From positions 7,204-71,203 of the forward strand of contig CAKONI010000001.1 of NCBI GenBank assembly GCA_934097105.1: a stretch of 64,000 bases of DNA, given 5' to 3'. This DNA is from an uncultured Bacilli bacterium (GTDB taxonomy: Bacteria; Bacillota_I; Bacilli_A; RF39; UBA660). The position numbers were made by a program, and so were the translations under genes. Under the pieces are notes generated by a model that was not told where the DNA came from, did no database searches, and worked only from the letters and a program-made list of their open reading frames with translations. Shown here piece by piece: positions 12,624-35,099 of this stretch (positions are counted from its first letter, which is position 1; each line of letters starts with the position of its first letter).

Positions 12624-12655
12624 GTTATTACCTCTTTCTTTTGAGACATATTATA

Positions 12656-13516
12656 TCATATTTTTTTAGTTTTTCCTATTACTTCTTTGTATTCTATTTT
12701 TGTTTCTAGTCCTTTTTTTGAGTTTTTTTCTATGTCTTCATCTATTAGTATTGCATTATTTTGAAATAATAATATAATTGTTGATCCACCGAAGGAAAAA
12801 TATCCTTTTTCTTCATACTTTTTTAGTGTTTTTTTGTTTGTATTGTGGATTTTTCCAATGTTTAAGGCTCCGACTTCTATTTGATAAATTTCTTGGAAGT
12901 TTTCTGTTTTTATGAGTGATACTTCTCTTTGATTTTCTGTGAATACTTTGTGTGTTTCGTAGCTTATTGGGTTTACTGTGTGGAGCAGACCTTTTATCTT
13001 TTTGGTTTTTTTTATTTCTTGATTATCAAAGGCGTGGTATCTGTGATAATCGTCGGGGCTTAGTCTAAATACTAGGCATTTTCCGTTTTTGAAGTTTTTG
13101 TTTGGTTTTTCCTTAATTAGTGTTTCTATGTTGTAGGTTGAGTTTTTAACATTTATTGTTAAGTTTTCTTTTATTTCGTATACCATTAGTTTGGCATCGC
13201 AAGGAGATATTAACAGGTTTTTGTTGATATCTTTTTCTGGTTTTGGGTTATTAACATTTCTTGTGAAAAAGTCATTAAAGTTTTTGTAGGTTTCTTTTTT
13301 ATATTTTGTCATGTCTATATTGTTTTTTTGTATGAATTTTTTTATGTAGGCTTTTGAGAGTTTGCTATTTATTAGGTGACCAGTTATTTTTGAGAAGACT
13401 GGTTTTGTTATTATTTTTAATATTATTCTTCCGGGAATTGTTTTATATAAAAATATTAAAGATTTTTGGTCTTTAATATTTACAATTTTTTTTGTTTTTC
13501 TTTCTATATATTTCAT
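12656..13516 (-). CDS. psd: Phosphatidylserine decarboxylase proenzyme
   Basis: 286 aa containing LSPDDYHRYH and the FSFGGSTIILLF self-cleavage region typical of Firmicutes Psd. Its start overlaps the pssA stop by 1 nt. Confidence 0.85.
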   Translation of the reverse strand: MKYIERKTKKIVNIKDQKSLIFLYKTIPGRIILKIITKPVFSKITGHLINSKLSKAYIKKFIQKNNIDMTKYKKETYKNFNDFFTRNVNNPKPEKDINKNLLISPCDAKLMVYEIKENLTINVKNSTYNIETLIKEKPNKNFKNGKCLVFRLSPDDYHRYHAFDNQEIKKTKKIKGLLHTVNPISYETHKVFTENQREVSLIKTENFQEIYQIEVGALNIGKIHNTNKKTLKKYEEKGYFSFGGSTIILLFQNNAILIDEDIEKNSKKGLETKIEYKEVIGKTKKI

Positions 13517-15626: not shown

Positions 15627-17579
15627 CTACTTTGTTTTTATTTCGAACAGTATATCTCTTAGTTCCATTGCTCTTTCGAAATCTAGTTCTTTGGCTGCTT
15701 TTTTCATTTCTTCTTCTATGTTTTCTATACTTTTCATATCTATTATATCATTTTTCTTTGTTTTTTCTAATTTTTTTAGTTCTTTTTCATCATTATTTGA
15801 AATGACTTCTCTTATTTCTTTTGTTATTGTTTTTGGAGTGATGTTGTGTTTTTTGTTATATTCTTCTTGAATTTTTCTTCTTCTTTGGGTTTCTTCGATA
15901 GCTTTTTGCATGCTTTCTGTTATGCGATCTGCGTACATTATTACGTGTCCGTCTTTGTTTCTTGCACATCTTCCTATTGTTTGGATTAGACTTCTTTCGC
16001 TTCTTAGGAAGCCTTCTTTGTCGGCGTCTAGTATGGCGATTAGGCTAACTTCTGGTATGTCTAGGCCTTCTCTTAAGAGGTTTATTCCTACGATGCAGTC
16101 GTATTTTCCTAGTCTTAGTTCTCTTATTATTTTTAGTCTTTCTAGGGTTGTTATTTCTGAGTGAAGATATGCTACTTTTATATCTAGTTCTTTTAAGTAT
16201 TTTGTTAATTCTTCGCTCATTCTTATTGTGAGTGTTGTTATTAGGACGCGTTCGTTTTTCTTCGAGCGTTTTCTTATTTCTTCGATTAGATTATCTATTT
16301 GTCCTTCGGTTTTTCGTATTTCTATTGTTGGATCTAATAGGCCTGTTGGTCTTATGATTTGTTCTACTTTATTTTGGCAAAGTGATAGTTCATAGTCTCC
16401 AGGGGTTGCTGATACATAGATTATTTTGTCTGTTTTTTCTTCGAATTCTTCGAATTTTAGAGGTCTATTATCTAAGGCACTTGGAAGTCGGAAACCGTAG
16501 TCTACTAGGGTTGTTTTACGGGCTCTGTCTCCATTATACATGGCTCTTACTTGGGGCAGGGTTACGTGGGATTCATCTATTACTAAAAGGTAGTCATCTC
16601 CAAAGAAGTCCATTAGTGTGTTTGGGGTTTCTCCTTCTTTTCTTCCTGATAAGTGTCTTGAGTAGTTTTCTACGCCACTGCAAAAGCCTGTTTCTGTTAG
16701 CATTTCTATGTCATAGTTTGTTCTTTGTTCTAGTCTTTGGGCTTCGAGTAGTTTGTTTTCATTTTTTAATTCTTCTAGACGAATTTCTAGTTCTTCTTTT
16801 ATGGATTTTATGGCTTTTTTCATTTTTTCTTCGCTTGTTACGAAGTGACTTGCTGGGAATATTGTTACGGTTTTTATTATGTTTTTTACTTTTCCTGTTA
16901 AACTATCTATTTCTGAAATTTTATCTATTTCGTCTCCGAAAAATTCTACTCTTATTCCATTTCTTTTTTCTGAGTTTGGTATTATTTCTAATATGTCTCC
17001 GCGGACTCTGAATGTTCCACGTTTGAAGTCGTGATCGTTTCTTTCGTATAACATGTCTATTAGTTTTTTCATTACTTTGTCTCTTTCGAGTTCGAATCCT
17101 GTAGTTAGTGTTAGGGTGTTATTTTTATATTCTTCTACTTCTCCGATTCCATAGATGCAGGAAACTGAGGCAACGACGATTACATCTTCTCTTGATAGAA
17201 GAGCGGAAGTTGCCCCGTGTCTTAACTGGTCTATTTCGTCATTTATTGAGGAGTCTTTTTCTATGTAGGTATCTGTTCCGGGAATGTAGGCTTCTGGTTG
17301 GTAGTAGTCATAGTATGAGACGAAGTATTCTACTCTATTTTCTGGAAATAGTTCTTTTAGTTCGGCATAGAGTTGTCCGGCTAATGTTTTATTGTGGGCT
17401 AAAACTAGGGTTTTTTTATTTGTTTCTTTTATTACATTTGCTATTGTAAATGTTTTACCTGTTCCAGTGGCTCCTAAAAGGACTTGGTGTTTTTTGTTTT
17501 CTTCTACGCCTTTTACTAGTTCTTTTATGGCATTTGGTTGGTCTCCACTTGGTTTATATTTTGATACTATTTTGAACAT
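15627..17579 (-). CDS. uvrB: Excinuclease ABC subunit B
   Basis: 650 aa beginning [36 protein letters not shown], with helicase motifs and the C-terminal UvrC-interaction coiled-coil [21 protein letters not shown]. Confidence 0.95.
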
Positions 17580-17674
17580 AGAAAATCTCCTTTCTTTTTT
17601 TTGCTTTAAATATTTTTCATCATTATTTTAACACTTATTTTAGAAGAAAACAAGTAAGTTTGTTTGCTATTATT

Positions 17675-18292
17675 TTATCTTTTTCGCACTTTATTTTTTT
17701 CTTTGATATATAGGTATTCTTCGATGTGATATTGATGGTTTATATCATGAATGTCTTCAATTTCTTGAAGTTTGTTGTACATTTTCATGAAGACTATGTT
17801 AAATGGTTTGTAGTAACTTCCTGAGTTTCTAAATCTTATTTGTATTTCTTTGTGAGGGTGATTATCTTCTTTGTGATCTTTGATAGGATTTTGGGATAAA
17901 AATTCTAGCTTGAAACTATTTTCTAGTTTTTTTATTTTAAGGATGCTTGCTATTTTGTGCAAATCTTCATCGGAGTACCAGGTGATTGTTTTTTGCTCTT
18001 TATTGAATAGTTCATTATAATTTGAAAGGTTATATTTGTGATATTTTTCTGGGCCTTCGGAAGTGTGTGTTTTACTTATATTAGCATTTTTAATGTCTTT
18101 ATAAAGTTTGTTAAATAGGTTATATAACTCATAGTTTTCTTTGGTTATAAAAAAATAATTAGATTCTGGTGAGGAATTATTTGATTTGTTTTCAAATTCC
18201 CAATATAAATCGTCGTTTCCTCTTAAGAGGATTGTTAATGTTTTTTCTTTGTCTATGAGGATTATTTCATTTTCTTTTTTTATAATTTTCAT
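17675..18292 (-). CDS. Hypothetical 205-aa protein
   Basis: Clean ORF divergent from the amidoligase-like gene. No family recognised. Confidence 0.45.
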   Translation of the reverse strand: MKIIKKENEIILIDKEKTLTILLRGNDDLYWEFENKSNNSSPESNYFFITKENYELYNLFNKLYKDIKNANISKTHTSEGPEKYHKYNLSNYNELFNKEQKTITWYSDEDLHKIASILKIKKLENSFKLEFLSQNPIKDHKEDNHPHKEIQIRFRNSGSYYKPFNIVFMKMYNKLQEIEDIHDINHQYHIEEYLYIKEKNKVRKR

Positions 18293-18427
18293 GTGCTTTT
18301 CTCCTTTATTTGGTTTTATTTATATTATAGCAGATATTTTTATTTTTGGATGATTTACTGTATTTTTTCAAATTGACAAAGTAATATTGCTATGTTATAT
18401 TAAATATCAATTTAATGGTGATATATA

Positions 18428-20134
18428 ATGGATTTTGAAAGAGATGATTCTTTTTATGATATTGATTTAACTAATTGTCATACTAGAGAGGAAAGAATTA
18501 AGAAAATTATTGAAAATAAAATGCTTGATTATTTGTTTTCTTTTTTAAATGATGATGAAAAGGATGAATATTATATTTTTTTGAGTTATAATCGTTTGTA
18601 TAATTATTTATCTAGTAAGACGGAGGACTTTGTTTTTAAGCATTTGACTAATCATTTTGATAGACTTAGTGAATATGATATTGTTAAATTATTAGATTTT
18701 ATTGATAATGATAAACTAAAGTTTAAAATTATAGAAAGGCTTATTGAAAATGATTACATGTTTTTTATAGAGATTGCTTCTAAGAAGATTGATAGTGATC
18801 TTTATAAAATTAAAGTAATTGAGTTGTTAATAAAAAAAGAGGTTTTTAGTTTGACGTATGCTCCCATTGTGGGATCTTTAGGGAGTGATGAGAATAAAAA
18901 ATTGTTTTTTCCTTTTCTTTCTTTATATGAAAGAGTTAATTTAATTAAAGATTTTTCTGATAAGTCTTTAATTAAAGAGTTTGCTTTGAATGAAGAGTAT
19001 TTTGATTTTCAGTCTGATTTAGTTATTGCTACTTTTGATAAGGATTTTATTAGGGAAATGTTTTTAAATGTAAAGGTTCCTGTTTTTAGGAATAATGTTA
19101 TTAATAAGATTGATGATTTGGTGTTTAAACTTGAATTAATAAATTTACTGGATGATAAGAATGTAAAGAATTTCTTTTTATCTAATTTTAGTGATTTTTC
19201 AAAGGATTTTTTAGTTGAGGTTGATGATGAAGATTTTAATGAGGATAGGGTTGATAGGAATATTACTATAGGTGTGGAACTGGAGTGCGCTAATGAGGGG
19301 ATTATGAATTTTGAGGAAATTAATAGTATTTTTGAGGATTTTATGATTACTGGTGATATTAGTGTTAAAAATGGTTTTGAAATTGTTTCTCCGATTCTTC
19401 ATTATACGAGGGAGGATATGGGAAAATTAAAGTCTGTTTGTGAGTTTTTAAAAAAATGTGATTTTTATACAAATAGTTCTTGTGGTGGACATATACATAT
19501 TGGTGCGGATTATATAAAAAATAGGAATGAGTTGTATATGCTTTTGTATTTATATAATAACTGTGAAAATATAATATATTTGATTTGTAATAGAGAGCAT
19601 TCTAGGTCTAGGAGGAATATTAATAAGTATGCTAAAACTACTAAGAAGGCTTATTTGGAGGCTTGTGGGAGTAATTTGTTAAATGGAAATTTAACGAATG
19701 AGGAAACTGTCAGAAAAATAGTTGGTATTAATACTTCGCGTAATATGGGGCTTAATCTTATAAATATAAATAATAATTTTAAGCATACGATTGAGTTTAG
19801 GATGCCTAATGGGGAGATTGATTTTGAGGAGTTATTATGTAATATTAGGTTATTTGCAATGCTTGTTCAAAGATCATATGAACTTGCTAATGATATGCTT
19901 TCAAGTGAAAAAAAGGATTTGGTAGAGAAATTAAGTCATCAAATGCCTGAGAGTAAAAGACTGGAGATATTTTTAAATATTTTGTTTGATAGTGAAGAGG
20001 AGAGGGATATTTATTATAAGAGATATCATTCGAATATTTCGTTTATAAAGTCTATGTCTAATAAGTTGTTTTATGGTAATGGGGAGTTTTTACAAATAAA
20101 TGATGATAGTAAGAGATTGTCTTTAAAGAAGTGA
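18428..20134 (+). CDS. Protein with C-terminal amidoligase-like (glutamine-synthetase/GCS2-fold, Amidoligase_2-type) domain and ~270-aa N-terminal extension
   Basis: Residues ~280-480 carry an ordered motif series: GVELECAN, then GFEIVSPIL, then SCGGHIHIGADY, then TIEFRMPNGEID. This series is characteristic of carboxylate-amine ligases of the GS/GCS2/Amidoligase_2 family. The N-terminal half is acidic and Phe/Leu-rich with a repetitive feel. Confidence 0.55.
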   Translation: MDFERDDSFYDIDLTNCHTREERIKKIIENKMLDYLFSFLNDDEKDEYYIFLSYNRLYNYLSSKTEDFVFKHLTNHFDRLSEYDIVKLLDFIDNDKLKFKIIERLIENDYMFFIEIASKKIDSDLYKIKVIELLIKKEVFSLTYAPIVGSLGSDENKKLFFPFLSLYERVNLIKDFSDKSLIKEFALNEEYFDFQSDLVIATFDKDFIREMFLNVKVPVFRNNVINKIDDLVFKLELINLLDDKNVKNFFLSNFSDFSKDFLVEVDDEDFNEDRVDRNITIGVELECANEGIMNFEEINSIFEDFMITGDISVKNGFEIVSPILHYTREDMGKLKSVCEFLKKCDFYTNSSCGGHIHIGADYIKNRNELYMLLYLYNNCENIIYLICNREHSRSRRNINKYAKTTKKAYLEACGSNLLNGNLTNEETVRKIVGINTSRNMGLNLININNNFKHTIEFRMPNGEIDFEELLCNIRLFAMLVQRSYELANDMLSSEKKDLVEKLSHQMPESKRLEIFLNILFDSEEERDIYYKRYHSNISFIKSMSNKLFYGNGEFLQINDDSKRLSLKK

Positions 20135-20155
20135 TTTTGTTTAATAGAAAAAAAG

Positions 20156-20182
20156 AGTTATTAACAGGTTTTGTTAATAACT
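20156..20182. terminator. Bidirectional hairpin terminator (palindrome copy A)
   Basis: The arm AGTTATTAACA (20156-20166) pairs perfectly with TGTTAATAACT (20172-20182) around a GGTTT loop. An A-run precedes it and a T-rich tract follows. It sits between convergent genes. Confidence 0.5.
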
Positions 20183-21591
20183 TATTTTATTTTTGATTTT
20201 ACTTTATCGCTTGAAATTCTAGTGTTGTTTGCTCCATCCATTCTGGAGTTTGTAAGTCTTGTTTTTTTCTTTATGAACTGGTCATATTTTTGCAGGTTGG
20301 TCATATTTGTTTTTGTTTCTGTTTCATGACCGTGTCTTGCTCCGGTGTTTCTATATTTAGCATAGATTATTCCGTAGTAGATGAAACCACTTGCTAGAAA
20401 TATATATGGCCAATCATTGTCATCGCTTAGAGTTAATAGCATTAATATTAATCCTAGAATTTCTACGAGTAGTGAAATTATTAATAGTTTTGGAATGTGA
20501 ATTGGTACACTTCCCATTGTTTCTTTTGTTCTTGCATTTACTGCAACATAATGGAGCATACTTTTTCCATTTTTCTTTTCTTGTCTATAACTATAAAGCC
20601 ATACTGGTAGATATGCTGATTTCCATGTTTGTCCTTTTATTTGTAAATCTTCACTGTTCCATTTTACTCCGCGATCGTATTGTGTTAGAGTTTTATTTGC
20701 GGTGAATCTTGCTATGTCTTTTGATTGGGCTAAGACTAGTTCTTCTAGGTCACTTACGTTTGTATCTCTTTTTTCTGATGTATAACCTTTTATGTAATTT
20801 GAGTCCCATTTTACGCAATTTTCAGTATCAAATGGCATAATTGAATTTATTATGTTTGTTGTTTTGTCGCTTGAGTTTGTGTTTAATTTGTCTTTGCTGG
20901 ATTCTACTGTTAAGCCTTCGATTGTGAGATCGAATTCTCTTTTTACATCGTATAAGTCAGCATCGTAGTATGTTGTTTCTTGGTCTCCATGTTTTTCAGT
21001 ATAACTTCTTACTTCGTGTTCTCCTTGGCCATTTAAACTGGCATGAGTGTTTTCATCTATAATCATGTAGGGAAAGTAAACTCCCATTACGTTTTCTGCT
21101 TTAAATTCTCTTTTGAATTTTGGATGAGCATAGAATTTTCTTTTTCCTACGAAGTCTTTTATTAGTTCTTTGGCATCGTTTTTTGTTAGTTTAAAGGGAA
21201 GAACTGTATCTGGTACGGCACCGTTTGGAAGTTTGTTGTTTATTGATAGTGTATTTCTGCACCAGTGACATCTTGATTGTGTGCTTGCTGAGGTGTCTAT
21301 TACGACTTCTGCTCCGCAACTGGTACATTTTAGCGTTAGCATATCACTTTCACTTGCTATTATATCTGTTGCACCACTTCCTATTGTTTTTCCTTCTAAT
21401 TTACTTAGGTCTTTTGTTTCTTGTTCTAGTTTTTCTGGGTCAAATTCGTGTCTACAAAAGTTACATCTAAGTTTTCCATTATTTGTATTTAATGATATAT
21501 CTGTTGCGCCACATTTTGGACATTTGGTTTGTCCGTCTATGGCATTTTTATTTGTTTCTTCTATCTTTACTTCTTCTTTATTTTCTTCCAT
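20182..21591 (-). CDS. Double zinc-ribbon membrane protein (YdjG-like)
   Basis: The N-terminus has two Cys4 ribbons: CPKCG..CNFC and CTSCG..CHWC. A large middle domain follows, then two C-terminal TM helices (IPKLLIISLLVEILGLILMLL..IFLASGFIYYGIIYA) and a basic tail. It starts 5 bp after the upstream gene. Confidence 0.65.
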   Translation of the reverse strand: MEENKEEVKIEETNKNAIDGQTKCPKCGATDISLNTNNGKLRCNFCRHEFDPEKLEQETKDLSKLEGKTIGSGATDIIASESDMLTLKCTSCGAEVVIDTSASTQSRCHWCRNTLSINNKLPNGAVPDTVLPFKLTKNDAKELIKDFVGKRKFYAHPKFKREFKAENVMGVYFPYMIIDENTHASLNGQGEHEVRSYTEKHGDQETTYYDADLYDVKREFDLTIEGLTVESSKDKLNTNSSDKTTNIINSIMPFDTENCVKWDSNYIKGYTSEKRDTNVSDLEELVLAQSKDIARFTANKTLTQYDRGVKWNSEDLQIKGQTWKSAYLPVWLYSYRQEKKNGKSMLHYVAVNARTKETMGSVPIHIPKLLIISLLVEILGLILMLLTLSDDNDWPYIFLASGFIYYGIIYAKYRNTGARHGHETETKTNMTNLQKYDQFIKKKTRLTNSRMDGANNTRISSDKVKSKIK

Positions 21592-21595
21592 GTTA

Positions 21596-22747
21596 CTACC
21601 CCAATAATTTCTTTTTTGCTTCGTCGAAATCTTCTTGAGAGATTACACCGTCGTCTAATAGTTTTTTCATTTTTGTTAATTTTTCATATGGATCTTCTTG
21701 AGCGTTTTGTGTATTATTTACTGGTTGATTGAATGCTCCCATGGCTGCTCCGGCGGCGTTTACACCCATTCCCATGAATGCCATGCCAGAACCTCCGTTT
21801 TGACCTGCTGCTTCGAAGCCACGTGCCACTGATTGTTGCATGAATGAGTTTCCTCTGGCTCCAGAAAGGGCATCTGCTTTTTTAACATCACTAAGTAATT
21901 TTTTAGTATCATCATCGTATTCTATTGCTGTTATAGCAACTTTTTCTATTTCTAAACCTCTATCTGATTTCCATTTGTAAGCGTCTTCAACTGCTTGTGA
22001 TAGACTTTGAGCGAATCCTATTTGGTCTCCTTGAATTTTTGTTATGCGGTTTCCTTTGCTTGGATCGTTTGTATAGTTTGAAAATGCTGCGGATAGGCTT
22101 CCTACTACTTCATTAAATAGTTGTTCTCCGGCGATGTTTTCCATGTCTGCGAAATCGAATACTTCGCTATCTGGTCTTAGGTATGATGCTGGTACGAATT
22201 TTTTTACAAATAAAATTGGGTCTACTATTTTTAATGTATATGTTCCGCGTGTTATTGCTCCGGCTTGTGTTCCTAGGAATGCATCATCCCAGAATATTTC
22301 TGATTGAGTTCCGAATCTGTTTCCTGGTATTTCTTTTAAGTTTACATAAAATACTTGTTGTTCTCCGCCAGGTACTCCACCGAATTTAAATCTTTCCCAT
22401 GATGTTTTTAGTGTTGATGATAAAATGCCATCTCCGGCGAAGAATGATTTTGAATTTTGATCATCACTTTTAAATGTGAAACCTCCTGGTTCTGTTATGC
22501 ATCCAGTTATTTCTCCATCTTGCATTGTTATTAGTGCTGTTCCTTCTGGAACGATAATTTTACTTCCATTTGTTATAATATTTTCTGATCCTTTTGTGTT
22601 TGAACCACGACCATTGTCAGTTCCTTTTTTTACTCCTGCATATAATCCTGCAGTTGCTGATATGTCTGTTCTTGGTCCGATAAAGTCTTTCCATTCATCA
22701 GCGAATGTTCCTCCGATTGCTCCGCTAAATGCTTTGATAAATCCCAT
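21596..22747 (-). CDS. YdjI/COG4260-family (SPFH-like, 'virion core protein'-annotated family) protein with C-terminal SHOCT domain
   Basis: The N-terminus FIKAFSGAIGGTFADEWKDFI..KIIVPEGTALITMQDGEITG parallels the Bacillus YdjI N-terminus (..VEWEEFRD..LIIRPGQDAVFLNNGRVEG). A Gly/Ala/Met-rich linker follows, and the C-terminus KLTKMKKLLDDGVISQEDFDEAKKKLLG is a SHOCT-type motif. Confidence 0.6.
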   Translation of the reverse strand: MGFIKAFSGAIGGTFADEWKDFIGPRTDISATAGLYAGVKKGTDNGRGSNTKGSENIITNGSKIIVPEGTALITMQDGEITGCITEPGGFTFKSDDQNSKSFFAGDGILSSTLKTSWERFKFGGVPGGEQQVFYVNLKEIPGNRFGTQSEIFWDDAFLGTQAGAITRGTYTLKIVDPILFVKKFVPASYLRPDSEVFDFADMENIAGEQLFNEVVGSLSAAFSNYTNDPSKGNRITKIQGDQIGFAQSLSQAVEDAYKWKSDRGLEIEKVAITAIEYDDDTKKLLSDVKKADALSGARGNSFMQQSVARGFEAAGQNGGSGMAFMGMGVNAAGAAMGAFNQPVNNTQNAQEDPYEKLTKMKKLLDDGVISQEDFDEAKKKLLG

Positions 22748-22958
22748 AATTTTTCTCTCCTTCTTTTTTTATTTTATTTGTTGAAATTATACATTTTTAG
22801 GAAGAATTACCACTTTTTGTGAGTATTTCCCTTTGTTTAATTTTAACCCTTTTAACGATTTAAGTATATATGTTTTTTGGCATAAAAGTCAATGGTATTT
22901 TATTACTTTGGGCATTATTTATATTAAAAATAGTAATACTGTGGTAAAATACTTATAG

Positions 22959-23600
22959 GTGATTGGAATGAATAAGAGAAAAAAAATAATTATTATTGAG
23001 GATCAAATTATTTTAAAGGATACGCTTAAAAAAGTAATTTCTAATTCATATGATGTTGCTGCGACGGCTTTGTCTGCGAAAGATATGATGGAACTGTGCA
23101 ATAAATATAAGCCTAATATTGTATTAACTGATATATGTACTCAGGAGGGTTTTAGTGGTATTAAAAATGGAAAAAAGGTAAAAGAAAAATATGGTAATTC
23201 TATAAAAGTTGTTGCAATGACTGGGATGCAAGAAATTACATTTTTGGATGAGGCTAAGAATGCTAATCTTGATGGGTTTATTTATAAGAATATTGATTCT
23301 GATACACTTCTTTCTATAATTGAACAAGTGCTTAGTGGATATAAATTGTTTCCTGATAATGTCACTGTTAAGAGAGAAAGTGCTAATTTAAAAAAACTTA
23401 CTAATAGGGAAATTAAGATTTTGACTCTTTTGTGTTCTGGCTTGGAACGTGAGGATGTTGCGGATGAGATTAATATAACGACTGGGACATTAAAGAATCA
23501 TATATCTTCTATTCTTAATAAAATGGAGTTTGATAGTTTGTCTAAGTTGCTAGTTTTTTGTGTTAGTAATGGTTATATTGTTCCAAATTTAAAAGACTAA
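22959..23600 (+). CDS. Response regulator, NarL/LuxR family
   Basis: REC domain (IIIIEDQ, phospho-acceptor in NIVLTDICT, conserved T in VVAMTG and K in FIYKN) plus a C-terminal LuxR HTH (LTNREIKILTLLCSGLEREDVADEINITTGTLKNHISSILNKM). The true start may be the ATG at 22968. Confidence 0.85.
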   Translation: MIGMNKRKKIIIIEDQIILKDTLKKVISNSYDVAATALSAKDMMELCNKYKPNIVLTDICTQEGFSGIKNGKKVKEKYGNSIKVVAMTGMQEITFLDEAKNANLDGFIYKNIDSDTLLSIIEQVLSGYKLFPDNVTVKRESANLKKLTNREIKILTLLCSGLEREDVADEINITTGTLKNHISSILNKMEFDSLSKLLVFCVSNGYIVPNLKD

Positions 23601-23619
23601 GTTTACCCTTTTTTTGTGT

Positions 23620-24741
23620 TTAAATTTCTATTTTTAATGTGAATTTGTTTTTATAATCTATGGTTAGAGTTCCATTTATTTCATTTAGTTTTCTTCTCAT
23701 TCCTTTTATTCCTTCATTTTCTTTTACTTTTTTTGTAGGGAGTGTGCCATCATTTGTAATAATCATTGTATTTTTGCTTATATCTATATTTATATTTCTA
23801 CTACCTCCATGAATAATTGCATTTGTTATGGATTCTCTAATTATTTCATAGAATATTTTTTGTATATTTTTTTCTTTAGAGAGACTCCCTTTTATATTAA
23901 TATTTATTTCTAATACTTTGTATATTTCTACTAATCTGTTTAGTTTTTTAGTATAATTCGTTTCTTTTTGATCTTCGGCAAATAGGTTATCTATCATGAA
24001 TTTTATGTCGTTGATGTTTGTTTTTTTGTTATTTAAGTAACTTTTGAATAGTGATAATCTATGTCCTAATAAATCATGGAATTCATTTTTTATTTTTGTA
24101 AGGTTTTTGCTTTTTTCTATTTGTTCTATGTTATTTAAGTTTTTTTGTATTTTTTTATTGTACTTTTTTATTTTTTTATTTTGGTTTTCATATTCTATAT
24201 TTAACTTATAGATATCTGTTATATCAATTGCCACTATTTCTTTATTGTTAAATGTTTTTATTTGCCATATTTTGTCTATACATTTTAGTAAATATTCTTC
24301 ATTTATTATTTTGAAAGATTTTTTTTGGAAGTTTTTTATGAAGTCTTTTTTTATATTTAATTCTTTTAAAATGTTTTCCATTGTTTTGTTTATTAGGAAA
24401 ATATTTTCTTTTTTATCTAGGAACATTATTCCATTATTTGATTTATCTATTGCATTCTTTATTGATAATATGGATATCATTTTTTTATTGTTTATAAGTT
24501 GTAATAAAAATGAAATTAGTACATATACAATAGTTATTATTGATGTCCAGTAGCAGAATTTGTTTATTTTGTTTGTGCTTGTGTAGTCCATGTTTATATA
24601 GCACGAGTAAATCATAAGTATTAGTATTAGTATTTCTATTAGTACTTTTGCTATATTTTTTTCTTTTTTTAATAAGAGTATGGAAACTCTATAAACTTGG
24701 AATACTAATGTGATTGATAATATGCCTATTATTAATCTCAT
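23620..24741 (-). CDS. Sensor histidine kinase, HisKA_3 (NarX/DesK/LiaS-type)
   Basis: Three N-terminal TM helices; H-box EFHDLLGHRLSLF; HATPase N-box ESITNAIIHGGS and G-region GIKGMRRKL. It is convergent with and 19 bp from the RR gene. Confidence 0.8.
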   Translation of the reverse strand: MRLIIGILSITLVFQVYRVSILLLKKEKNIAKVLIEILILILMIYSCYINMDYTSTNKINKFCYWTSIITIVYVLISFLLQLINNKKMISILSIKNAIDKSNNGIMFLDKKENIFLINKTMENILKELNIKKDFIKNFQKKSFKIINEEYLLKCIDKIWQIKTFNNKEIVAIDITDIYKLNIEYENQNKKIKKYNKKIQKNLNNIEQIEKSKNLTKIKNEFHDLLGHRLSLFKSYLNNKKTNINDIKFMIDNLFAEDQKETNYTKKLNRLVEIYKVLEININIKGSLSKEKNIQKIFYEIIRESITNAIIHGGSRNINIDISKNTMIITNDGTLPTKKVKENEGIKGMRRKLNEINGTLTIDYKNKFTLKIEI

Positions 24742-26255
24742 GATGTCACCTCTTTTTTTATTTTAAATGTTAGTTCTGTGTCAGTGTCATAGTTTTTCTT
24801 TATGAAATGTATGTTTTTGGGAAGTTTTGGTTTTTCTATTTTTGTTGTGCCTCCTATAATGAATTTTACTTTTATATTGTTTTTTTCTTCAGTTATAAAT
24901 ATAATAATACTGGTATTTTTGATGTTTTTTAGTGTTTCAAATGCTATATCATAAAGAAGCGATGTTTCATAACTTTGAATTTTTATTTCATTTGTTAAGA
25001 CTTCTCCGGTTATTTTTTGAAAGGAAAAGTCAGTAATTAATTCTTTTAGGAGAATATTTATACTTATTTTGTTATATGTTTCATTGTTTAACTCTGATAT
25101 AATAAGATAACTTTTTCTTTTACAGTATGAAATAAGCACTTTTATATATTCTAAATCTTGTTTCGTTAATTCCTTTTTATTTAGTATTTCTTTTGCTTCT
25201 GATTTTTTTTCTTTCATGTTATTTTCAAGTTTTGTTATTATTTGTTTTCTTAAGGTTATTTGGTATAATTCTTTTTTTATTTGTTCTTCATTTTTCAATT
25301 TTTCTTGAATTTTTAGTAGTTCTTTTTGTTTTGATTTTATTTCATTTTTTAATTCATTTATTTTTGTTATATCATTTCTTAGTAAAATATAACTATCTTT
25401 ATTGTGTATTAGATTATATGTTGTATTTTTTTCTTTGTATGTTTTTTGTGCTTTGTTATTTTTTAGGTCATTATATATGTTTTTTGGTATTTTGTAGAAT
25501 GATTTTGTTTCATAAATTGTGTCTATATTTTCTGATATTACAATCATGTCTAAATGGGAGTTTGTGAATGTTTTTTTATATTTGCTGTTACTGGATATTA
25601 GTCCTAAATAGAGGATGAGTTCTATTCCTAAGCATATTAGAGTGCTTAGTATTACTGATAGGTTACTTTTTCTAAATATTGGTAGACCTTTTATATAAAA
25701 ATATGTATAAAGGAGTCCTAGTACTAGTAATATTAGAGGTAAAAAGGCTTTCGGGGTGTTTTTTTCTTTTATTTTATTTATTGCTAGTTTTATTAGTCCT
25801 TTTCCGAATAGGTAAAAAATCCATATGCAAGTTATGTAATATCCTATGAAGTGGTTATAGTCGTCGAAGTATTCTTTTCCTTTTGGAAATTTGAAGGCAA
25901 GTTCGTGGATATCATTTGTGAGAATTAGTCCTAGTAAGAGAAATGAAATTGTGTAAATTATTATTTTTCTTTTTTTAGTTATTTTGTTTAGTAAATTTGA
26001 GATACAAATATAAAAAAGTGTTGGAGTAAAAATTAATGGTAAATAGTATAAGTACCAAAATAGTCTTTCGAGCTGGCTTGATGTTACTATTCCCTTTCCT
26101 ATTCTTATTAACATCCAAAAAATAATTAAGATACCGATTGACATGATGTATTTTTTTACTTTTTCATCGTATAGTTTATAGTATAGTCTAATTGTCCAGA
26201 AACTGAAGATAATTAGAAATATTAGTGTTTCTTGTAATTTTAGCATAAAATGCAC
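24738..26255 (-). CDS. Polytopic membrane sensor-like protein with degenerate kinase-like C-terminus
   Basis: About 7 TM helices in the first 230 aa, then a long Lys/Glu coiled-coil, then a C-terminal region laid out like the adjacent kinase. It lacks the H-box His and the N/G-box motifs. Its stop overlaps the kinase start (ATGA). Confidence 0.55.
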   Translation of the reverse strand: MHFMLKLQETLIFLIIFSFWTIRLYYKLYDEKVKKYIMSIGILIIFWMLIRIGKGIVTSSQLERLFWYLYYLPLIFTPTLFYICISNLLNKITKKRKIIIYTISFLLLGLILTNDIHELAFKFPKGKEYFDDYNHFIGYYITCIWIFYLFGKGLIKLAINKIKEKNTPKAFLPLILLVLGLLYTYFYIKGLPIFRKSNLSVILSTLICLGIELILYLGLISSNSKYKKTFTNSHLDMIVISENIDTIYETKSFYKIPKNIYNDLKNNKAQKTYKEKNTTYNLIHNKDSYILLRNDITKINELKNEIKSKQKELLKIQEKLKNEEQIKKELYQITLRKQIITKLENNMKEKKSEAKEILNKKELTKQDLEYIKVLISYCKRKSYLIISELNNETYNKISINILLKELITDFSFQKITGEVLTNEIKIQSYETSLLYDIAFETLKNIKNTSIIIFITEEKNNIKVKFIIGGTTKIEKPKLPKNIHFIKKNYDTDTELTFKIKKEVTS

Positions 26256-26398
26256 CTCATTACTGGATATTATAACAAATATTTTTTGCTTTTCAAATAT
26301 AAAGTGACTTTTGTCATTAAATATTTTTTTAAATTATATCTTTTGGCATATATACTAAAAACAGTAATTATTTTATAATAATTGTGAAAGGAGAGAAT

Positions 26399-27985
26399 AT
26401 GAAAAAAATTAAATTTTTGTTGCTTGTGGTAGCACTTTTTATGTCTTTCGGATGTATTAGTGTTAGTGCTGAGACTGGTAAGAAACCTGGGACGATTACT
26501 ACTAAGGAGGACCTTATATACTATATTTATTATTATGGTGGTATGGCTAGACTTGATGGTAATACTGTTAAACTAACTAGTAGTTTAGAACTTGCTCAAG
26601 AACTTTCATTTAATAACACTGAGAGTGTAACTTTGGATTTGAATGGTAATGGGATTTATTTTAGTGGATCTGATTCAAAGGTTATGATTTATGATAATGC
26701 TAAAGATGTTACTATAACGGATTCTAGTAATAGTGATAAAGATTACATAAGATCTCAAAGTAATTATGCTATTTACAATAGTTCTAGTGTGGGAGTTGTT
26801 ACTGTTTCTAATACTATGTTGGTTACTAATAGTAGTTTGCCTGCTATATATACTTATGGCTTTAGTAAAACTAATGTAGTTAATACTACTGTTAGAGGGG
26901 ATAATATTGGAATTGGTGCTGGAGCAAATTCAACTGTTTTTGTTAAGAACTCTAAAGTTTCTTTAGGAAATCCTACTGGTGAAGTTGGTATTGATCTTGC
27001 TAATTCTAATGTTACTATTACTAATTCTGATGTTAACGTTTATAGTGGTGCCACTAAGGGGATTGCTATTAAGAGTGAAGGTGATCGTTCTAATCTTATA
27101 ATTAATAGTGGCAAGTTTAATGCCTATAAAAGTGCTGTTTATGTTTCTGAGGGAAAAGCAACTATTAATGGTGGTTTATTTGAAAGTAATAATAATCATG
27201 CTTTTAGAACTTCTACAAATGCTGTAATTAATGGTGGCATATTTAAGAGCAATTGTATGGCTGGTGTACAAATTATGGGCGCTAGTACTAATGTTGTTTT
27301 AAATGAAGGTACTTTTATGGCTGGTTCATCTAGCGATATTGGAGGCCTTGCTCTTCCACTTGGTAGTGATATTTCTACTTATGTAGGAAAGACTAGTATT
27401 ATTGATAATGATTTTACTTTATCTAAAAATGGACTTTCTTATACTGAAAGTAAGGAAGTTAATATTTCATCACTTCCTAAGACAAAAAAGTTAAGTACTA
27501 CTACTTACACATATAATGGCTATGTTAGAGAACCTAATGTAACTGTTACTAATAATTTAGGTAAAAAATTAGTTAAAGGTACTGATTATAAATTAATATA
27601 TCAAAGTGGTAGAAAGTATGTTGGTAAGTATTATGTACAAATAATTTATTTAGGCAAGTATAAAACTTTAAAATCTGAGAAGTTATATTTTACTATTAAT
27701 CCTAAAGGGACTTATATTTCTAACCTATCTAGAGGCAAGAAACGTTTAACTGTTAAGGTTTCTAAAAGAACTTCTCAAACTACTGGATATCAAATTATGT
27801 ATTCTTCTAGTAAAAAGTTTTCAGGATATAAAACTGTTAAAATGACTAATAAGAATACTAGTAAAACTATTAAAGGTTTAAAATCTGGTAAGAGATATTA
27901 TGTTAAAGTTAGGACTTATAAAGTTTCTAATGGTAAGACATATTATTCTAGTTGGTCTAAAGTAAAATCTGCTGTTGTGAAATAG
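26399..27985 (+). CDS. Secreted beta-helix repeat protein with C-terminal Fn3-like/Lys-rich modules
   Basis: AAGGAGAG precedes the ATG at 26399. Signal peptide MKKIKFLLLVVALFMSFGCISVSA. Many T/S/N/V-rich ~22-aa repeats (TVSNTMLVTNSSLPAIYT..., NSTVFVKNSKVSLGN..., SNVTITNSDVNVYSG...) suggest a parallel beta-helix, and the C-terminus has Y.V.VR Fn3-like patterns. Confidence 0.6.
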   Translation: MKKIKFLLLVVALFMSFGCISVSAETGKKPGTITTKEDLIYYIYYYGGMARLDGNTVKLTSSLELAQELSFNNTESVTLDLNGNGIYFSGSDSKVMIYDNAKDVTITDSSNSDKDYIRSQSNYAIYNSSSVGVVTVSNTMLVTNSSLPAIYTYGFSKTNVVNTTVRGDNIGIGAGANSTVFVKNSKVSLGNPTGEVGIDLANSNVTITNSDVNVYSGATKGIAIKSEGDRSNLIINSGKFNAYKSAVYVSEGKATINGGLFESNNNHAFRTSTNAVINGGIFKSNCMAGVQIMGASTNVVLNEGTFMAGSSSDIGGLALPLGSDISTYVGKTSIIDNDFTLSKNGLSYTESKEVNISSLPKTKKLSTTTYTYNGYVREPNVTVTNNLGKKLVKGTDYKLIYQSGRKYVGKYYVQIIYLGKYKTLKSEKLYFTINPKGTYISNLSRGKKRLTVKVSKRTSQTTGYQIMYSSSKKFSGYKTVKMTNKNTSKTIKGLKSGKRYYVKVRTYKVSNGKTYYSSWSKVKSAVVK

Positions 27986-28005
27986 AGGTAATCCTCTATT
28001 TTTTT
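27983..28005 (+). terminator. Rho-independent terminator of the beta-helix gene
   Basis: TAGAGG-TAAT-CCTCTA hairpin followed by T7. Confidence 0.5.
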
Positions 28006-28016
28006 ATGTAAAAAAA

Positions 28017-28044
28017 AGTTATTAACAGTTTTTTGTTAATAACT
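28017..28044. terminator. Bidirectional hairpin terminator (palindrome copy B)
   Basis: AGTTATTAACA (28017-28027) pairs with TGTTAATAACT (28034-28044) around a GTTTTT loop. The arms are identical to copy A at 20156-20182. An A8 run precedes it. The ddl stop codon lies in the right arm. Confidence 0.5.
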
Positions 28045-29079
28045 CATTTCATTTTCTATTAGACTATTTACTAGTTCTTTGTTATCTATACCCATGCTTT
28101 CAAATAGTTGTGGATACATACTTATTTGAGTAAAGCCTGGTAATGTATTTATTTCGTTTAAATATATTTCGCCTTTTTCATCTAAAAAGAAGTCTATTCT
28201 TGATATTTCTTTGCAGTCTAAGGCTAGGAAGGCTTTTTTTGCTATTTTTTGAATTTCATTTTCTTGTTCTTTTGTAATGGATGCATGACAAGTTGTTTTT
28301 GAATCGTTGTTTTTATATTTTGAGTTATAATCATAAAATTCATTTGCTGATAGTATTTCTCCGACTGGAGAGGTTATTATTTCGCCCTTTTCTAGTATAG
28401 CGCATTCAAGTTCTTTTCCTGTTATGCCTTTTTCTATTAATATTTTTTTATCATATTTTCCTGCTAGAATAATGGACTTTTTTAATTCTTCTTCATTATT
28501 CGCTTTAGTTATTCCTATTGAGGAACCATAATTTGATGGTTTTATGAATACTGGAAAGCCTAGATCTTTTTTTACATTTTTTGAGATGTCTTCTAGTGAT
28601 GTTTTTGTTTGATTTAAGTTTTCATCTACGTTTGTGTACTCATTTTTTTCTTTTATTATGTATTTGTAAGGTGCTTGTTTTATTTTTGCTTGGTTTAAAA
28701 CTATTTTTGTATAGGCTTTATCCATTGCAAGTGATGAAGATAAAACTTTGCATCCTACGTATGGTATGTTTAATAGTTCAAATAGGCCTTGTATTGTGCC
28801 ATCTTCTCCGTATTTACCATGTAATACTGGAAAGATACAATCGAAGTTTTTTAAGTATTCTAGGACGTTTTCTATTGGTTTTAAATTTTCTAAGTTTTTA
28901 CCAAATTCTATATTATAATTGTTTGTTTCGTATTCATACCAGTTGCCTTTTTTGTCTATATAGATATTTGTTTTTTGATATTTTTCTGTATCTATATTTT
29001 TGCTAACGAATAGTCCTGAGGAAATTGATACTTCATGTTCTGTTGATTTTCCACCAAATATTATTGCTATTTTTTTCAT
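28036..29079 (-). CDS. ddl: D-alanine--D-alanine ligase
   Basis: 347 aa, MKKIAIIFGGKSTEHEVSISSG.., ATP-grasp fold; C-terminal ..YLNEINTLPGFTQISMYP. Confidence 0.9.
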   Translation of the reverse strand: MKKIAIIFGGKSTEHEVSISSGLFVSKNIDTEKYQKTNIYIDKKGNWYEYETNNYNIEFGKNLENLKPIENVLEYLKNFDCIFPVLHGKYGEDGTIQGLFELLNIPYVGCKVLSSSLAMDKAYTKIVLNQAKIKQAPYKYIIKEKNEYTNVDENLNQTKTSLEDISKNVKKDLGFPVFIKPSNYGSSIGITKANNEEELKKSIILAGKYDKKILIEKGITGKELECAILEKGEIITSPVGEILSANEFYDYNSKYKNNDSKTTCHASITKEQENEIQKIAKKAFLALDCKEISRIDFFLDEKGEIYLNEINTLPGFTQISMYPQLFESMGIDNKELVNSLIENEMSY

Positions 29080-29688: not shown

Positions 29689-29946
29689 TTATTTTATTAA
29701 TTTTAAAAATGCATCTCTATGAAAATTATTTATACTTCTTACTGAATAGTACCTCTGTGGTTTTCCGTATTTTGAGAAGTCCATATGATAAGAGATGTAA
29801 CTTAGATTTTGTTTCTTCCAGTATATTCTTAAAATTAACTCAATCTCGTATCCGTTCAGGCCTTTGCTTCTACAGAATTCTATGATTCCATCTTTCTCTG
29901 TTGGAAAGGCTACCATTCTAATTAATTTTCTCGTCATTTTTCTCAT
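29689..29946 (-). CDS. Hypothetical small protein (82-85 aa), translationally coupled to upstream membrane protein
   Basis: Overlaps the stop of the AgrB-like gene. AAAGGA lies upstream of the second ATG (MTRKLIRMVAF..). Soluble and Tyr/Lys-rich. Possibly DUF3791-like; low certainty. Confidence 0.35.
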   Translation of the reverse strand: MRKMTRKLIRMVAFPTEKDGIIEFCRSKGLNGYEIELILRIYWKKQNLSYISYHMDFSKYGKPQRYYSVRSINNFHRDAFLKLIK

Positions 29947-30379
29947 CCTTTACTACTATATAATTCATATATGTCGACATTAGCGCACCGAGTATTATGC
30001 ATAAGAATACGCTTATTTCTATACTTGGTATGAATGCTGTTATAAGGAAGAATACTGTCCATGTAAATATTGTACATTTAAATGTAGAATTTAAATGGAA
30101 TGTTTCTCCTAAAAATGTTCTTGTGAAGAAAAATCCTATTAAAAAGAATGACAATTCTGCGAATGCATTATTGAAATAAGCAATTACGAAGACTCCTGCT
30201 GATTGTATCAACTGTAGTGGTATAGTTATTCCGTAGAATATTACGTTTTCTAGGACTCTTTCTAGTTTTTCTGCTTTTTCTTCTGCATAATATTCTATAG
30301 AACTAGTATTATTAAACCAAATTCCATTTTTATGTTTTCTTTTGTTGTTTTTGGTTTTAGTGTTTTCTTGTTTTTTCAT
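29918..30379 (-). CDS. AgrB-like membrane protein (putative cyclic-peptide processing endopeptidase)
   Basis: 153 aa with a Lys-rich N-tail and 4 TM helices. The loop between TM2 and TM3 reads FFTRTFLGETFHLNSTFKC, an R..G..H-x6-C arrangement like the catalytic His/Cys region of AgrB (RRHAHGAHAPSSFWC). Confidence 0.35.
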   Translation of the reverse strand: MKKQENTKTKNNKRKHKNGIWFNNTSSIEYYAEEKAEKLERVLENVIFYGITIPLQLIQSAGVFVIAYFNNAFAELSFFLIGFFFTRTFLGETFHLNSTFKCTIFTWTVFFLITAFIPSIEISVFLCIILGALMSTYMNYIVVKDEKNDEKIN

Positions 30380-34072: not shown

Positions 34073-34270
34073 TTATATAATTTTAGTTATTGATGTGAAG
34101 TCCATGATGAAACTTGTTACTAAATAGATTATAGATATTGCTAAAAGTAAGTAAAATATTTTTGCTTTGATTGGTTTGTTTTTTTTAAATATTTGATTTA
34201 TGTTTAATGAATCTAGTGAGAATACTACGAGTATTGTTACTAGAAAGTAAAGTAATAATTTACCTAGCAT
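34073..34270 (-). CDS. Small two-TM membrane protein (65 aa)
   Basis: Two hydrophobic helices. Overlaps the rpiB start by 11 nt. Confidence 0.3.
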   Translation of the reverse strand: MLGKLLLYFLVTILVVFSLDSLNINQIFKKNKPIKAKIFYLLLAISIIYLVTSFIMDFTSITKII

Positions 34271-34700
34271 TTTCGTAATCCTTTATTTGGTTTATTCTTC
34301 TTTGATATTTTTCCTCTTGTAGTGGTTTTGATGTTATGAATGCATTTATCATTTCCATGGCTGTTTTTTTATTTAGATGGCTACTTAAAGCGATTACGTT
34401 TGCATTATTATGTTCTTTGGCAAGTGTTGCTTCTTCTTTTGTTGCTACTTTAGCGCACATTATTCCATTTATCTTATTTAGTATTATTGACATTCCTATT
34501 CCTGTTCCACATATGGCTATTCCTATAGTGTCTTTATTTTTTAAAACTGTTTCTCCTAGTTTTATTCCGTATTTTGGATAGTCTACTGATTCAGTACTAT
34601 TTGTTCCTAAATCTATTATTTCGTATTTTTCTGATAATTCTTTTTTTAGTTCTTCTTTTAAGGTGTATCCTCTGTGATCGGATGCTATTGCTATTTTCAT
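34260..34700 (-). CDS. rpiB: Ribose-5-phosphate isomerase B (RpiB/LacAB family)
   Basis: 146 aa: MKIAIASDHRGYTLKEELKKEL.. with the ICGTGIG motif. Confidence 0.85.
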   Translation of the reverse strand: MKIAIASDHRGYTLKEELKKELSEKYEIIDLGTNSTESVDYPKYGIKLGETVLKNKDTIGIAICGTGIGMSIILNKINGIMCAKVATKEEATLAKEHNNANVIALSSHLNKKTAMEMINAFITSKPLQEEKYQRRINQIKDYENAR

Positions 34701-35030: not shown

Positions 35031-35099
35031 TTTTTATTTCTCTCCTTCCGCCATGACTTTTGTCATAGTAATAATAATTCTTGTATAGTATAGCAAATT

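Follow-up and report, generated by a model that had tools for sequence, protein, structure and literature searches.

A conserved SPFH/zinc-ribbon gene pair without a nearby pspA gene in an uncultured Bacilli bacterium and its predicted link to a lineage-specific two-component system

A 64-kb stretch of contig CAKONI010000001.1 (64,000 nucleotides, assembly GCA_934097105.1, called the window in the following) from an uncultured Bacilli bacterium of the RF39 group was analyzed for two adjacent genes encoding a soluble SPFH protein and a zinc-ribbon membrane protein. By sequence, this pair is a PspA-less and TPM-less relative of SamI/SamG (YdjI/YdjG) of Bacillus subtilis, with the B. subtilis proteins compared by description. 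We consider it probable, at about 60%, that the pair forms a self-contained membrane module, which came under the control of a lineage-specific two-component system (TCS) only in the lineage of the window. Of chief interest is that this variant, which lacks a PspA gene nearby, is strongly conserved in host-associated bacteria with reduced genomes. The original prediction had combined five open reading frames (ORFs), namely the pair, a response regulator (RR), a histidine kinase (HK) and a seven-transmembrane (7TM) protein, into one envelope-stress system. All five were present at their predicted positions and with the predicted domain types. The unit that is conserved, however, was found to be smaller.

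Scanning one genome per species yielded 80 loci. In 77 of the 80 species representatives, the SPFH gene and its partner lay side by side in the same orientation, and the remaining 3 loci stopped at a contig edge. Hosts of the pair were uncultured gut Bacilli, Clostridia, Erysipelotrichaceae and metagenome-assembled genomes labelled as Tenericutes, together with Clostridium sp. CAG:417 and Candidatus Saccharibacteria including Nanosyncoccus nanoralicus. Amino acid identity across this survey was 65-85%, and mean column identity in alignment A2 reached 86%; the pair is under very strong purifying selection and retained near-universally in these lineages. For the single proteins, homolog lists comprised the best 120 matches. 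Among the matches listed, the SPFH protein showed 77-88% identity to its thousands of close homologs and the partner approximately 70% to 4974 close homologs, which are named “TFIIB-type zinc ribbon-containing protein” at NCBI; clustering at 50% identity left 3730 representatives of the partner family. No third conserved gene was found beside the pair, with the most frequent neighbour family present at 13 loci, and the genomic contexts were otherwise unrelated between loci. Because adjacency was constant, the contexts were unrelated and a third gene was missing, the conserved unit consists of two genes, not five. As a general system the five-gene neighbourhood had to be abandoned, since no more than 4 of the 80 species representatives (L013, L025, L026, L028), plus the window's own species, have the TCS beside the pair. 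The conservation of a PspA- and TPM-less pair at this level across gut lineages and Saccharibacteria speaks for an independent function of the SPFH/zinc-ribbon core. The SamGHI (YdjGHI) proteins are under active study with the question whether they are PspA recruiters only or also have their own signalling (bioRxiv 10.64898/2026.02.06.704340), and the pair offers a minimal two-protein system for testing the function of this core.

The SPFH gene (21596..22747, minus strand) encodes 383 amino acids (aa) with the N-terminus MGFIKAF, a Band_7_1 domain, a Gly/Met/Gln/Pro-rich linker at approximately residues 315-350 and a C-terminal SHOCT motif. Profile searches confirmed the expected COG4260/SPFH and SHOCT assignments, both above cut-off: Pfam Band_7_1 (PF13421) matched residues 55-286 with 31.4 bits (cut-off 24), and SHOCT (PF09851) matched residues 355-382 with 31.7 bits (cut-off 27). 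No transmembrane (TM) or hydrophobic segment was found in the protein, indicating that it is soluble, and neither Cys pairs nor a C-terminal zinc finger were present, the C-terminus being occupied by SHOCT. An AlphaFold2 model reached a mean pLDDT of 56 with core blocks at 70-86. Its top matches in the PDB were all SPFH proteins (24 at E<=1e-3), among them stomatin, HflK/C, prohibitin, flotillin, erlin and vault. The combination of Band_7_1 with SHOCT is not unusual; in 2013 it was reported to be the commonest SHOCT architecture, Band_7_1 accompanying SHOCT more often than any other domain (Eberhardt et al., PMC3581485). The window protein shares the identical two-domain architecture with the proteins described there. 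That report, however, covers the architecture alone, without the obligatory zinc-ribbon/TM partner gene, without the extreme conservation in reduced-genome gut lineages and without regulation. A strong Shine-Dalgarno sequence (GAAGGAGAG) precedes the SPFH gene, and an Rfam search of window positions 17000-29000 (E<=1) gave no match and thus no known riboswitch or leader in the 5' untranslated region of approximately 90 nt.

The ATG of the partner gene (20182..21591, minus strand) follows the SPFH stop codon after 4 nt (TAG-taac-ATG). Its product, a YdjG/SamG-like protein of 469 aa, starts with two zinc ribbons of the type CxxC...CxxC at approximately residues 24-46 and 89-111, continues with a conserved domain of about 250 aa without Pfam or PDB sequence match, and ends with a TM hairpin at approximately aa 367-413, as read from sequence and alignment, followed by a conserved basic tail with a YRNxGARH motif. 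PDB sequence searches matched the zinc ribbons only, and the profile of the partner family matched the TFIIB zinc ribbon 1pft at 3.3e-5. Among 62 diverse members the four CxxC motifs were invariant or nearly so, and 42 of the 62 matched Zn_Ribbon_TF (best E 1.9e-7), while the partner in the window stayed with 19 bits under the 29-bit cut-off. The tail was found in 119 of the best 120 close homologs versus 0 of 93 full-length distant ones. Since a signal peptide was not found and the zinc ribbons are Cys-rich, the first 365 residues and the tail are expected to be cytoplasmic, with the hairpin serving as anchor. Downstream of the partner gene, the operon ends in an intrinsic-terminator-like hairpin (20148..20181, minus strand) read from the sequence as GTTATTAACA-aaacc-TGTTAATAAC and then TCTTTTTTT, i.e., a 10-bp stem followed by a T-run, which sits between the two-gene operon and a convergent amidoligase gene. 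It was missed by the consensus scan because its stem is AT-rich. In PHROGs, only the SHOCT and zinc-ribbon pieces found matches, in families of unknown function.

In B. subtilis the pspA-ydjGHI genes form a sigma-W envelope-stress operon, and YdjI is a soluble protein with a low-complexity linker after its SPFH domain (PMC8581546). YdjG (SamG) consists of two zinc ribbons, an uncharacterised NTF2-like/YpeB-related domain and a TM segment (PMC11237479). YdjH (SamH) is a TPM protein; SamG and SamH bring SamI to the membrane, and SamI brings PspA (PMC8581546, PMC11237479, bioRxiv 10.64898/2026.02.06.704340). The pair in the window resembles this system in its soluble Band_7_1-type SPFH protein with low-complexity linker and small C-terminal module, in the adjoining two-zinc-ribbon membrane protein, whose middle domain is uncharacterised and whose TM region is C-terminal, and in the expectation that the SPFH protein acts via membrane recruitment. 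The proposed homology to YdjI, which we take to be a member of Pfam Band_7_1 as well according to its UniProt/Pfam annotation, was supported by the Band_7_1 match, by an hhalign comparison of the window SPFH family with a classical Band_7_1 protein from Comamonas (88% probability, E 3e-6, 249 columns) and by alignment to a relative from Enterococcus gallinarum. The latter was obtained by tblastn in a plasmid collection and belongs to an operon for an SPFH protein (Band_7_1 with 50 bits, accompanied by a double zinc ribbon), a zinc-ribbon TM (ZnR-TM) protein with Zn_Ribbon_TF and a TPM protein. Over most of their length, the two SPFH proteins were 34% identical (E 3e-56) and the window partner and the ZnR-TM protein 26% (E 3e-37); together with the match to the published YdjG architecture, this upheld the reading of the partner as YdjG-like. 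In the Comamonas replicon, likewise, a gene for a “TFIIB-type zinc ribbon-containing protein” comes after the classical Band_7_1(+HTH) gene.

The differences from PspA-SamGHI are also clear. With phmmer at E<=10, no ORF of the window matched PspA (E. coli sequence as query) or TPM/YdjH (E. gallinarum TPM as query), in line with the predicted lack of a local pspA and ydjH, and neither protein was found within 10 kb of the pair in 92 pair-bearing loci (E<=1e-3). PspA_IM30 was absent too from the Pfam annotations of called genes at the inspected pair loci. The sensitivity of the PspA search was limited, and its negative result is a soft one. Further, the window SPFH protein ends in SHOCT, whereas SamI ends in a zinc finger; the partner carries an additional TM segment as well as the YRNxGARH tail, which is not present in its distant relatives; the SPFH gene comes first; and the pair is not sigma-W-controlled, having its own promoters and, in this lineage, a predicted TCS operator. 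From the SPFH-NfeD and flotillin systems (FloA/FloT, YuaG-YuaF), in which an SPFH scaffold is also encoded with a dedicated membrane partner, the pair differs in that its SPFH protein has no membrane anchor of its own and that the partner is a zinc-ribbon protein instead of NfeD/YuaF. Two side observations were made among the relatives. The E. gallinarum operon (L098, pK205-4a-A, 484 kb, labelled plasmid) lies beside dnaX, recR, tmk, holB and rplKAJL, so that the replicon looks like a chromid or a chromosome fragment. In Monoglobus pectinilyticus (L100, NZ_OY725743.1), the gene ahead of an SPFH relative of 32% identity encodes a TIM44-like domain protein, which may be an alternative membrane adaptor replacing the zinc-ribbon partner.

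By analogy to SamG/H-SamI, the partner would anchor and nucleate SPFH oligomers on the inner face of the membrane, and these oligomers would organise or stabilise membrane regions without locally encoded PspA or TPM. SHOCT and the clade-specific tail of the partner are candidate contact surfaces. An envelope-stress role of the module is suggested by the same analogy.

The TCS next to the pair includes a NarL/LuxR-type RR gene (22959..23600, plus strand) with Pfam Response_reg and GerE domains; the receiver residues, read from the sequence, appear intact. Translation probably begins at the ATG at 22968, which has the Shine-Dalgarno sequence AGGTGA, and not at the GTG at 22959, giving a protein of 210 aa. 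The RR and SPFH genes are divergent, as described before, yet with this start the shared intergenic region measures 220 bp and not 211 bp. The convergent HK gene (23620..24741, minus strand, 373 aa) encodes three N-terminal TM segments with short loops and no extracytoplasmic domain, a PAS-like cytoplasmic region, an H-box and a catalytic domain. Its designation as a HisKA_3 kinase agreed with motifs read from the sequence (HisKA_3-type H-box EFHDLLGHRL, N-box ESITNAIIHG and a G2-like motif), but Pfam HisKA_3 was not detected and HATPase_c was marginal (E 0.072); the NCBIfam UhpB C-terminal model matched at 4.9e-6. Upstream of the HK gene, with a stop codon overlapping the HK start by 4 nt (ATGA) in the manner of translational coupling, lies the 7TM gene (24738..26255, minus strand, 505 aa, likely start ATG 26246). 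Its product contains HisKA_7TM (32.2 bits, cut-off 28.6) as the only Pfam match, a coiled coil and a C-terminal domain. It had been taken for a pseudo-kinase sensor. The catalytic His is indeed missing: in the DHp-like motif KELYxIxLRK, the candidate position held Y, E or D and never His in 11 of 11 aligned homologs. Descent from a kinase was not supported; neither a HATPase_c match nor BLAST similarity to the HK was found. The 7TM family is narrow with 231 homologs, and the proteins of the next species are merely 53-59% identical.

The arrangement of the TCS genes was constant across loci, with overlapping 7TM and HK genes and a convergent RR gene, while the genes divergent from the RR changed. 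The SPFH pair occupies this place in the window, L095 and L025; a 321-aa ORF and then the pair follow in L013, and three small genes and then the pair in L028. Elsewhere, at TCS loci without the pair, a Flg_new surface protein (L093), a PBP5-type peptidase (L094) or a BclA_C protein (L096) is encoded there. The TCS-plus-pair loci (L013, L025, L026, L028 and the window) occupy three places in the pair tree, and the only flanking genes common to the window and the other TCS-plus-pair species are those of the TCS. On its other side, the window TCS adjoins the gene of a secreted protein, p533 (26384..27985, plus strand, approximately 528-533 aa, likely start ATG 26399), with a signal peptide, no Pfam family and weak fn3/Ig-like matches at the C-terminus. 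In L094, L096 and L097, its orthologs (524 aa, 550-570 bits) are likewise encoded divergently to the 7TM gene. No neighbour of the TCS is better conserved than p533, which is also the clearest target predicted for the TCS; other surface proteins come next, and the pair can no longer be regarded as the main output of the TCS. As a side observation, the 7TM and HK genes are each split into two ORFs in L028 (2577-5203) and in L026, by frameshifts, as pseudogenes or through assembly errors; in this species the RR gene is intact, as are two operator pairs, and the HK and RR genes are separated by a Flg_new/Big_2 surface-protein gene that has an operator of its own.

A putative operator was found by comparing RR-proximal intergenic regions. 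It consists of a 14-bp imperfect palindrome with the consensus ATGACTTTTGTCAT, which occurs twice with starts exactly 32 bp apart. In the window, the box proximal to the SPFH promoter reads ATGTTTTTTGGCAT on the plus strand (22870..22883), and the box distal to SPFH and proximal to the RR promoter reads ATTACTTTGGGCAT (22902..22915). A second pair lies between the 7TM operon and p533 (26304..26349), with GTGACTTTTGTCAT at 26304 and ATATCTTTTGGCAT at 26336. Allowing up to 3 mismatches, the consensus box occurred 34 times in the window versus 18.3 +/- 4.0 times in shuffled sequences; strong 32-bp pairs were restricted to the two named (22870/22902 and 26304/26336), versus 0-2 in shuffles. In 1.5 Mb of related loci, high-scoring box pairs were confined to TCS-bearing loci, where they also precede surface-protein genes not adjoining the RR (L028:5251 and L093:13793), and none was found upstream of the pair in approximately 75 TCS-less loci.

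Promoter and terminator consensus scans gave background frequencies in this AT-rich DNA and were used as pointers only. For the SPFH operon, two candidate promoters were read: P1 with the -10 hexamer TAAAAT (22840..22845, minus strand), exactly 24 bp from the proximal box, and the proximal P2 with the extended -10 TGTATAAT (22786..22793, minus strand), approximately 39 nt upstream of the start codon and without an adjoining operator box. The second operator pair likewise lies 24 bp from the TATAAT of p533 (26374-26379), and 29 bp from the TATAAT of the 7TM gene (26269-26274). Overall, the spacing of 24 bp between proximal box and -10 was found in 7 of 8 operator-to-target cases from five species (window to SPFH and to p533, L095 to SPFH, L013 to the 321-aa ORF, L028 to a 123-aa ORF, L093 to Flg_new and to a 1234-aa protein), with the eighth off by one base and with -10-like hexamers occurring at 0.95% of positions as background. 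The geometry fits a class-II-like activation of the outward target promoters, with the predicted box centre near -43.

These data suggest the following course of regulation. The 7TM protein and the HK would sense a membrane or surface cue. The NarL-type RR is predicted to bind the two ATGACTTTTGTCAT-like boxes and would activate its target promoters from the proximal box ending 24 bp upstream of the -10, in a class-II-like manner. Its targets would be the secreted protein of 524-533 aa, other surface proteins and, here, the SPFH operon, for which the operator-free P2 probably gives basal expression; RR autoregulation may occur in addition. We infer the box-binding protein, the sign of regulation and the stimulus. 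An operator with fixed geometry precedes the SPFH operon in the window, which makes control of the pair by the TCS plausible as a predicted, lineage-specific feature. Of the wiring between RR and pair assumed by the original prediction, the in-silico operator with its fixed promoter geometry remained, while its generality (4 of 80 species) did not. The fixed operator architecture provides a directly testable regulon for an uncharacterised TCS in yet-uncultured organisms.

Among the alternatives, the best one holds that the TCS and the pair are mere neighbours, with the boxes at 22870-22915 serving RR autoregulation only, a regulon of secreted and surface proteins and a constitutive SPFH operon. 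The pair occurs without the TCS in 76 of the 80 species and carries strong sigma-70-type promoters there; the window has the operator-free P2; no neighbour of the TCS is more conserved than the p533 orthologs; and in L028 the operator is separated from the SPFH gene by three genes and a distinct promoter-like site. In addition, the distal box lies 29 bp from the extended -10 of the RR gene (TGGTAAAAT, 22942-22950, plus strand), the same distance as at the 7TM promoter. The spacing itself speaks against this explanation. The distance from the box to the RR's own -10 varied (29, 39, 45, 39 and 50 bp), whereas the outward -10 distance was exactly 24 bp in the window, L095, L013, L028 and L093, and the 24-bp spacing was also found at targets not adjoining the RR. 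Because one distance is variable and the other fixed, autoregulation alone is less likely. Moreover, the pair was found on the RR side in 5 of 8 distinct TCS contexts with all other flanks scrambled. We therefore regard a mere neighbourhood as unlikely, but retain one part of it: as P2 and the promoters at TCS-less loci indicate, the module is probably constitutive, with the TCS as an added lineage-specific layer.

Several points weigh against the preferred reading of a self-contained module with a lineage-specific regulatory layer. Membrane anchoring and the scaffold function are roles assigned to the two proteins solely by analogy. The SPFH protein scored 31 bits on Band_7_1 versus 292 bits for a classical member and because of this low score has to be placed in a divergent branch of the family, and its tie, like that of the partner, to B. 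subtilis YdjI/YdjG rests on descriptions and on the Enterococcus and Comamonas relatives. A pspA gene could lie elsewhere in the genome. On the regulatory side, a position-weight matrix found no operator boxes in L025, yet the TCS adjoins the pair there. A separate consensus-type promoter (TTGACT-18-TATACT) was predicted at a place that overlaps the proximal box, and from the sequence a repression of the SPFH promoter by the RR instead of an activation is possible. Finally, the 29 bp to the RR -10 are a plausible activating distance as well, and due to this distance part of the box signal could reflect autoregulation. In its most far-reaching form, our interpretation would describe a PspA-independent and self-sufficient module, near-indispensable in RF39-like Bacilli and Saccharibacteria and exchanged between phyla, which in the lineage of the window is one output of an undescribed 7TM-assisted surface-remodelling TCS with a precisely spaced tandem operator. 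Taken as a whole, this statement is tentative and rather to be doubted than accepted.

The five genes had originally been read as a LiaFSR-like intramembrane-sensing envelope-stress system with the Psp-accessory pair as its dedicated output. Like LiaFSR and VraTSR, the TCS of the window combines a kinase with a HisKA_3-type H-box, three closely spaced TM segments and no extracytoplasmic sensor domain with a NarL-type regulator, has the gene of an accessory membrane protein coupled directly upstream of the kinase, in the position of LiaF, and carries predicted operators in its own promoter regions. A predicted operator is also found within the SPFH promoter, and the homologous proteins of B. 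subtilis belong to the sigma-W envelope-stress operon (PMC8581546). However, no LiaF-like, Toastrack or PspC domain was detected with Pfam, and the accessory protein is a HisKA_7TM-type multi-pass protein with just 231 homologs, unrelated to LiaF and different from VraT. The RR gene lies on the opposite strand, convergent with the kinase gene. PspA or LiaH was not found in the window or near the pair; the predicted regulon consists of secreted and surface proteins, which are also the best-conserved predicted targets, plus the SPFH pair, not of LiaIH/PspA. The TCS is missing from 95% of the pair-bearing species, and the TCS loci L093, L094 and L096 lack the pair. With neither a LiaF-like protein nor a PspA/LiaIH output, the LiaFSR-like reading was given up as a description of this locus, and we consider it improbable. 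Least of all do we expect the pair to be mobile and accessory, for instance to serve in anti-phage defence or abortive infection, instead of being a housekeeping module: its many different genomic contexts, the Saccharibacteria copies with about 71% identity to Firmicutes suggesting lateral transfer, a weak PADLOC match of the zinc-ribbon region to PDC-S64 and the matches of the SHOCT tail to PHROG families of unknown function are opposed by the restriction of the PDC-S64 match to the zinc ribbons at 21 bits with none for the SPFH protein, by strong purifying selection (A2) and near-universal retention unlike defence genes, by housekeeping flanks without a directly adjacent integrase or mobility gene, by nearest recombinases or transposases several kb off (approximately 5 kb upstream in L004, 9-10 kb downstream in L011) and by a GC content of the Saccharibacteria pair that equals that of its flanks.

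Some further observations concern the surroundings of the pair and its base composition. Recurrent, non-universal neighbours were a zinc-ribbon protein of approximately 282 aa directly downstream (9 loci), small membrane proteins of approximately 189 aa (13 loci) and 153 aa (8 loci) and a stomatin-like SPFH protein upstream (6 loci); examples are L044 12681-13460, L036 6121-6573 and L061 8996-9799. The Saccharibacteria copies (L058, L060 at 10001-12697, L062-L064 and L066; approximately 71% aa identity to the window) nest among Firmicutes sequences in a neighbour-joining tree, with a GC content of 0.43 for the pair versus 0.41 for the flanks. This suggests that the pair was transferred between phyla long ago. 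In the window, G+C content was 0.35 for the pair (20182-22747) versus 0.24 for the TCS genes (22959-26255) and 0.30 for the whole window, and the contrast between pair and surroundings was repeated in L013, L021, L043 and L095.

Downstream of the pair, the plus-strand gene at 18428-20134 encodes a protein of 568 aa with Amidoligase_2 at the C-terminus and no family match in its N-terminal half, and the minus-strand gene at 17675-18292 a 205-aa protein without family match; both adjoin the pair only in the window's own species. At 29689-30379 (minus strand), an AgrB-like membrane protein of 153 aa (Pfam AgrB on an identical gene in L007) is followed by an 85-aa ORF, which may represent an agr-type peptide quorum-sensing pair without adjacent AgrCA. 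A single perfect ATGACTTTTGTCAT box without a partner box 32 bp away was found at 35053-35066, between the 3' end of the ORF at 35100-36374 (minus strand) and an rpiB-like gene (34260-34700, minus strand) located 353 bp downstream of the box.

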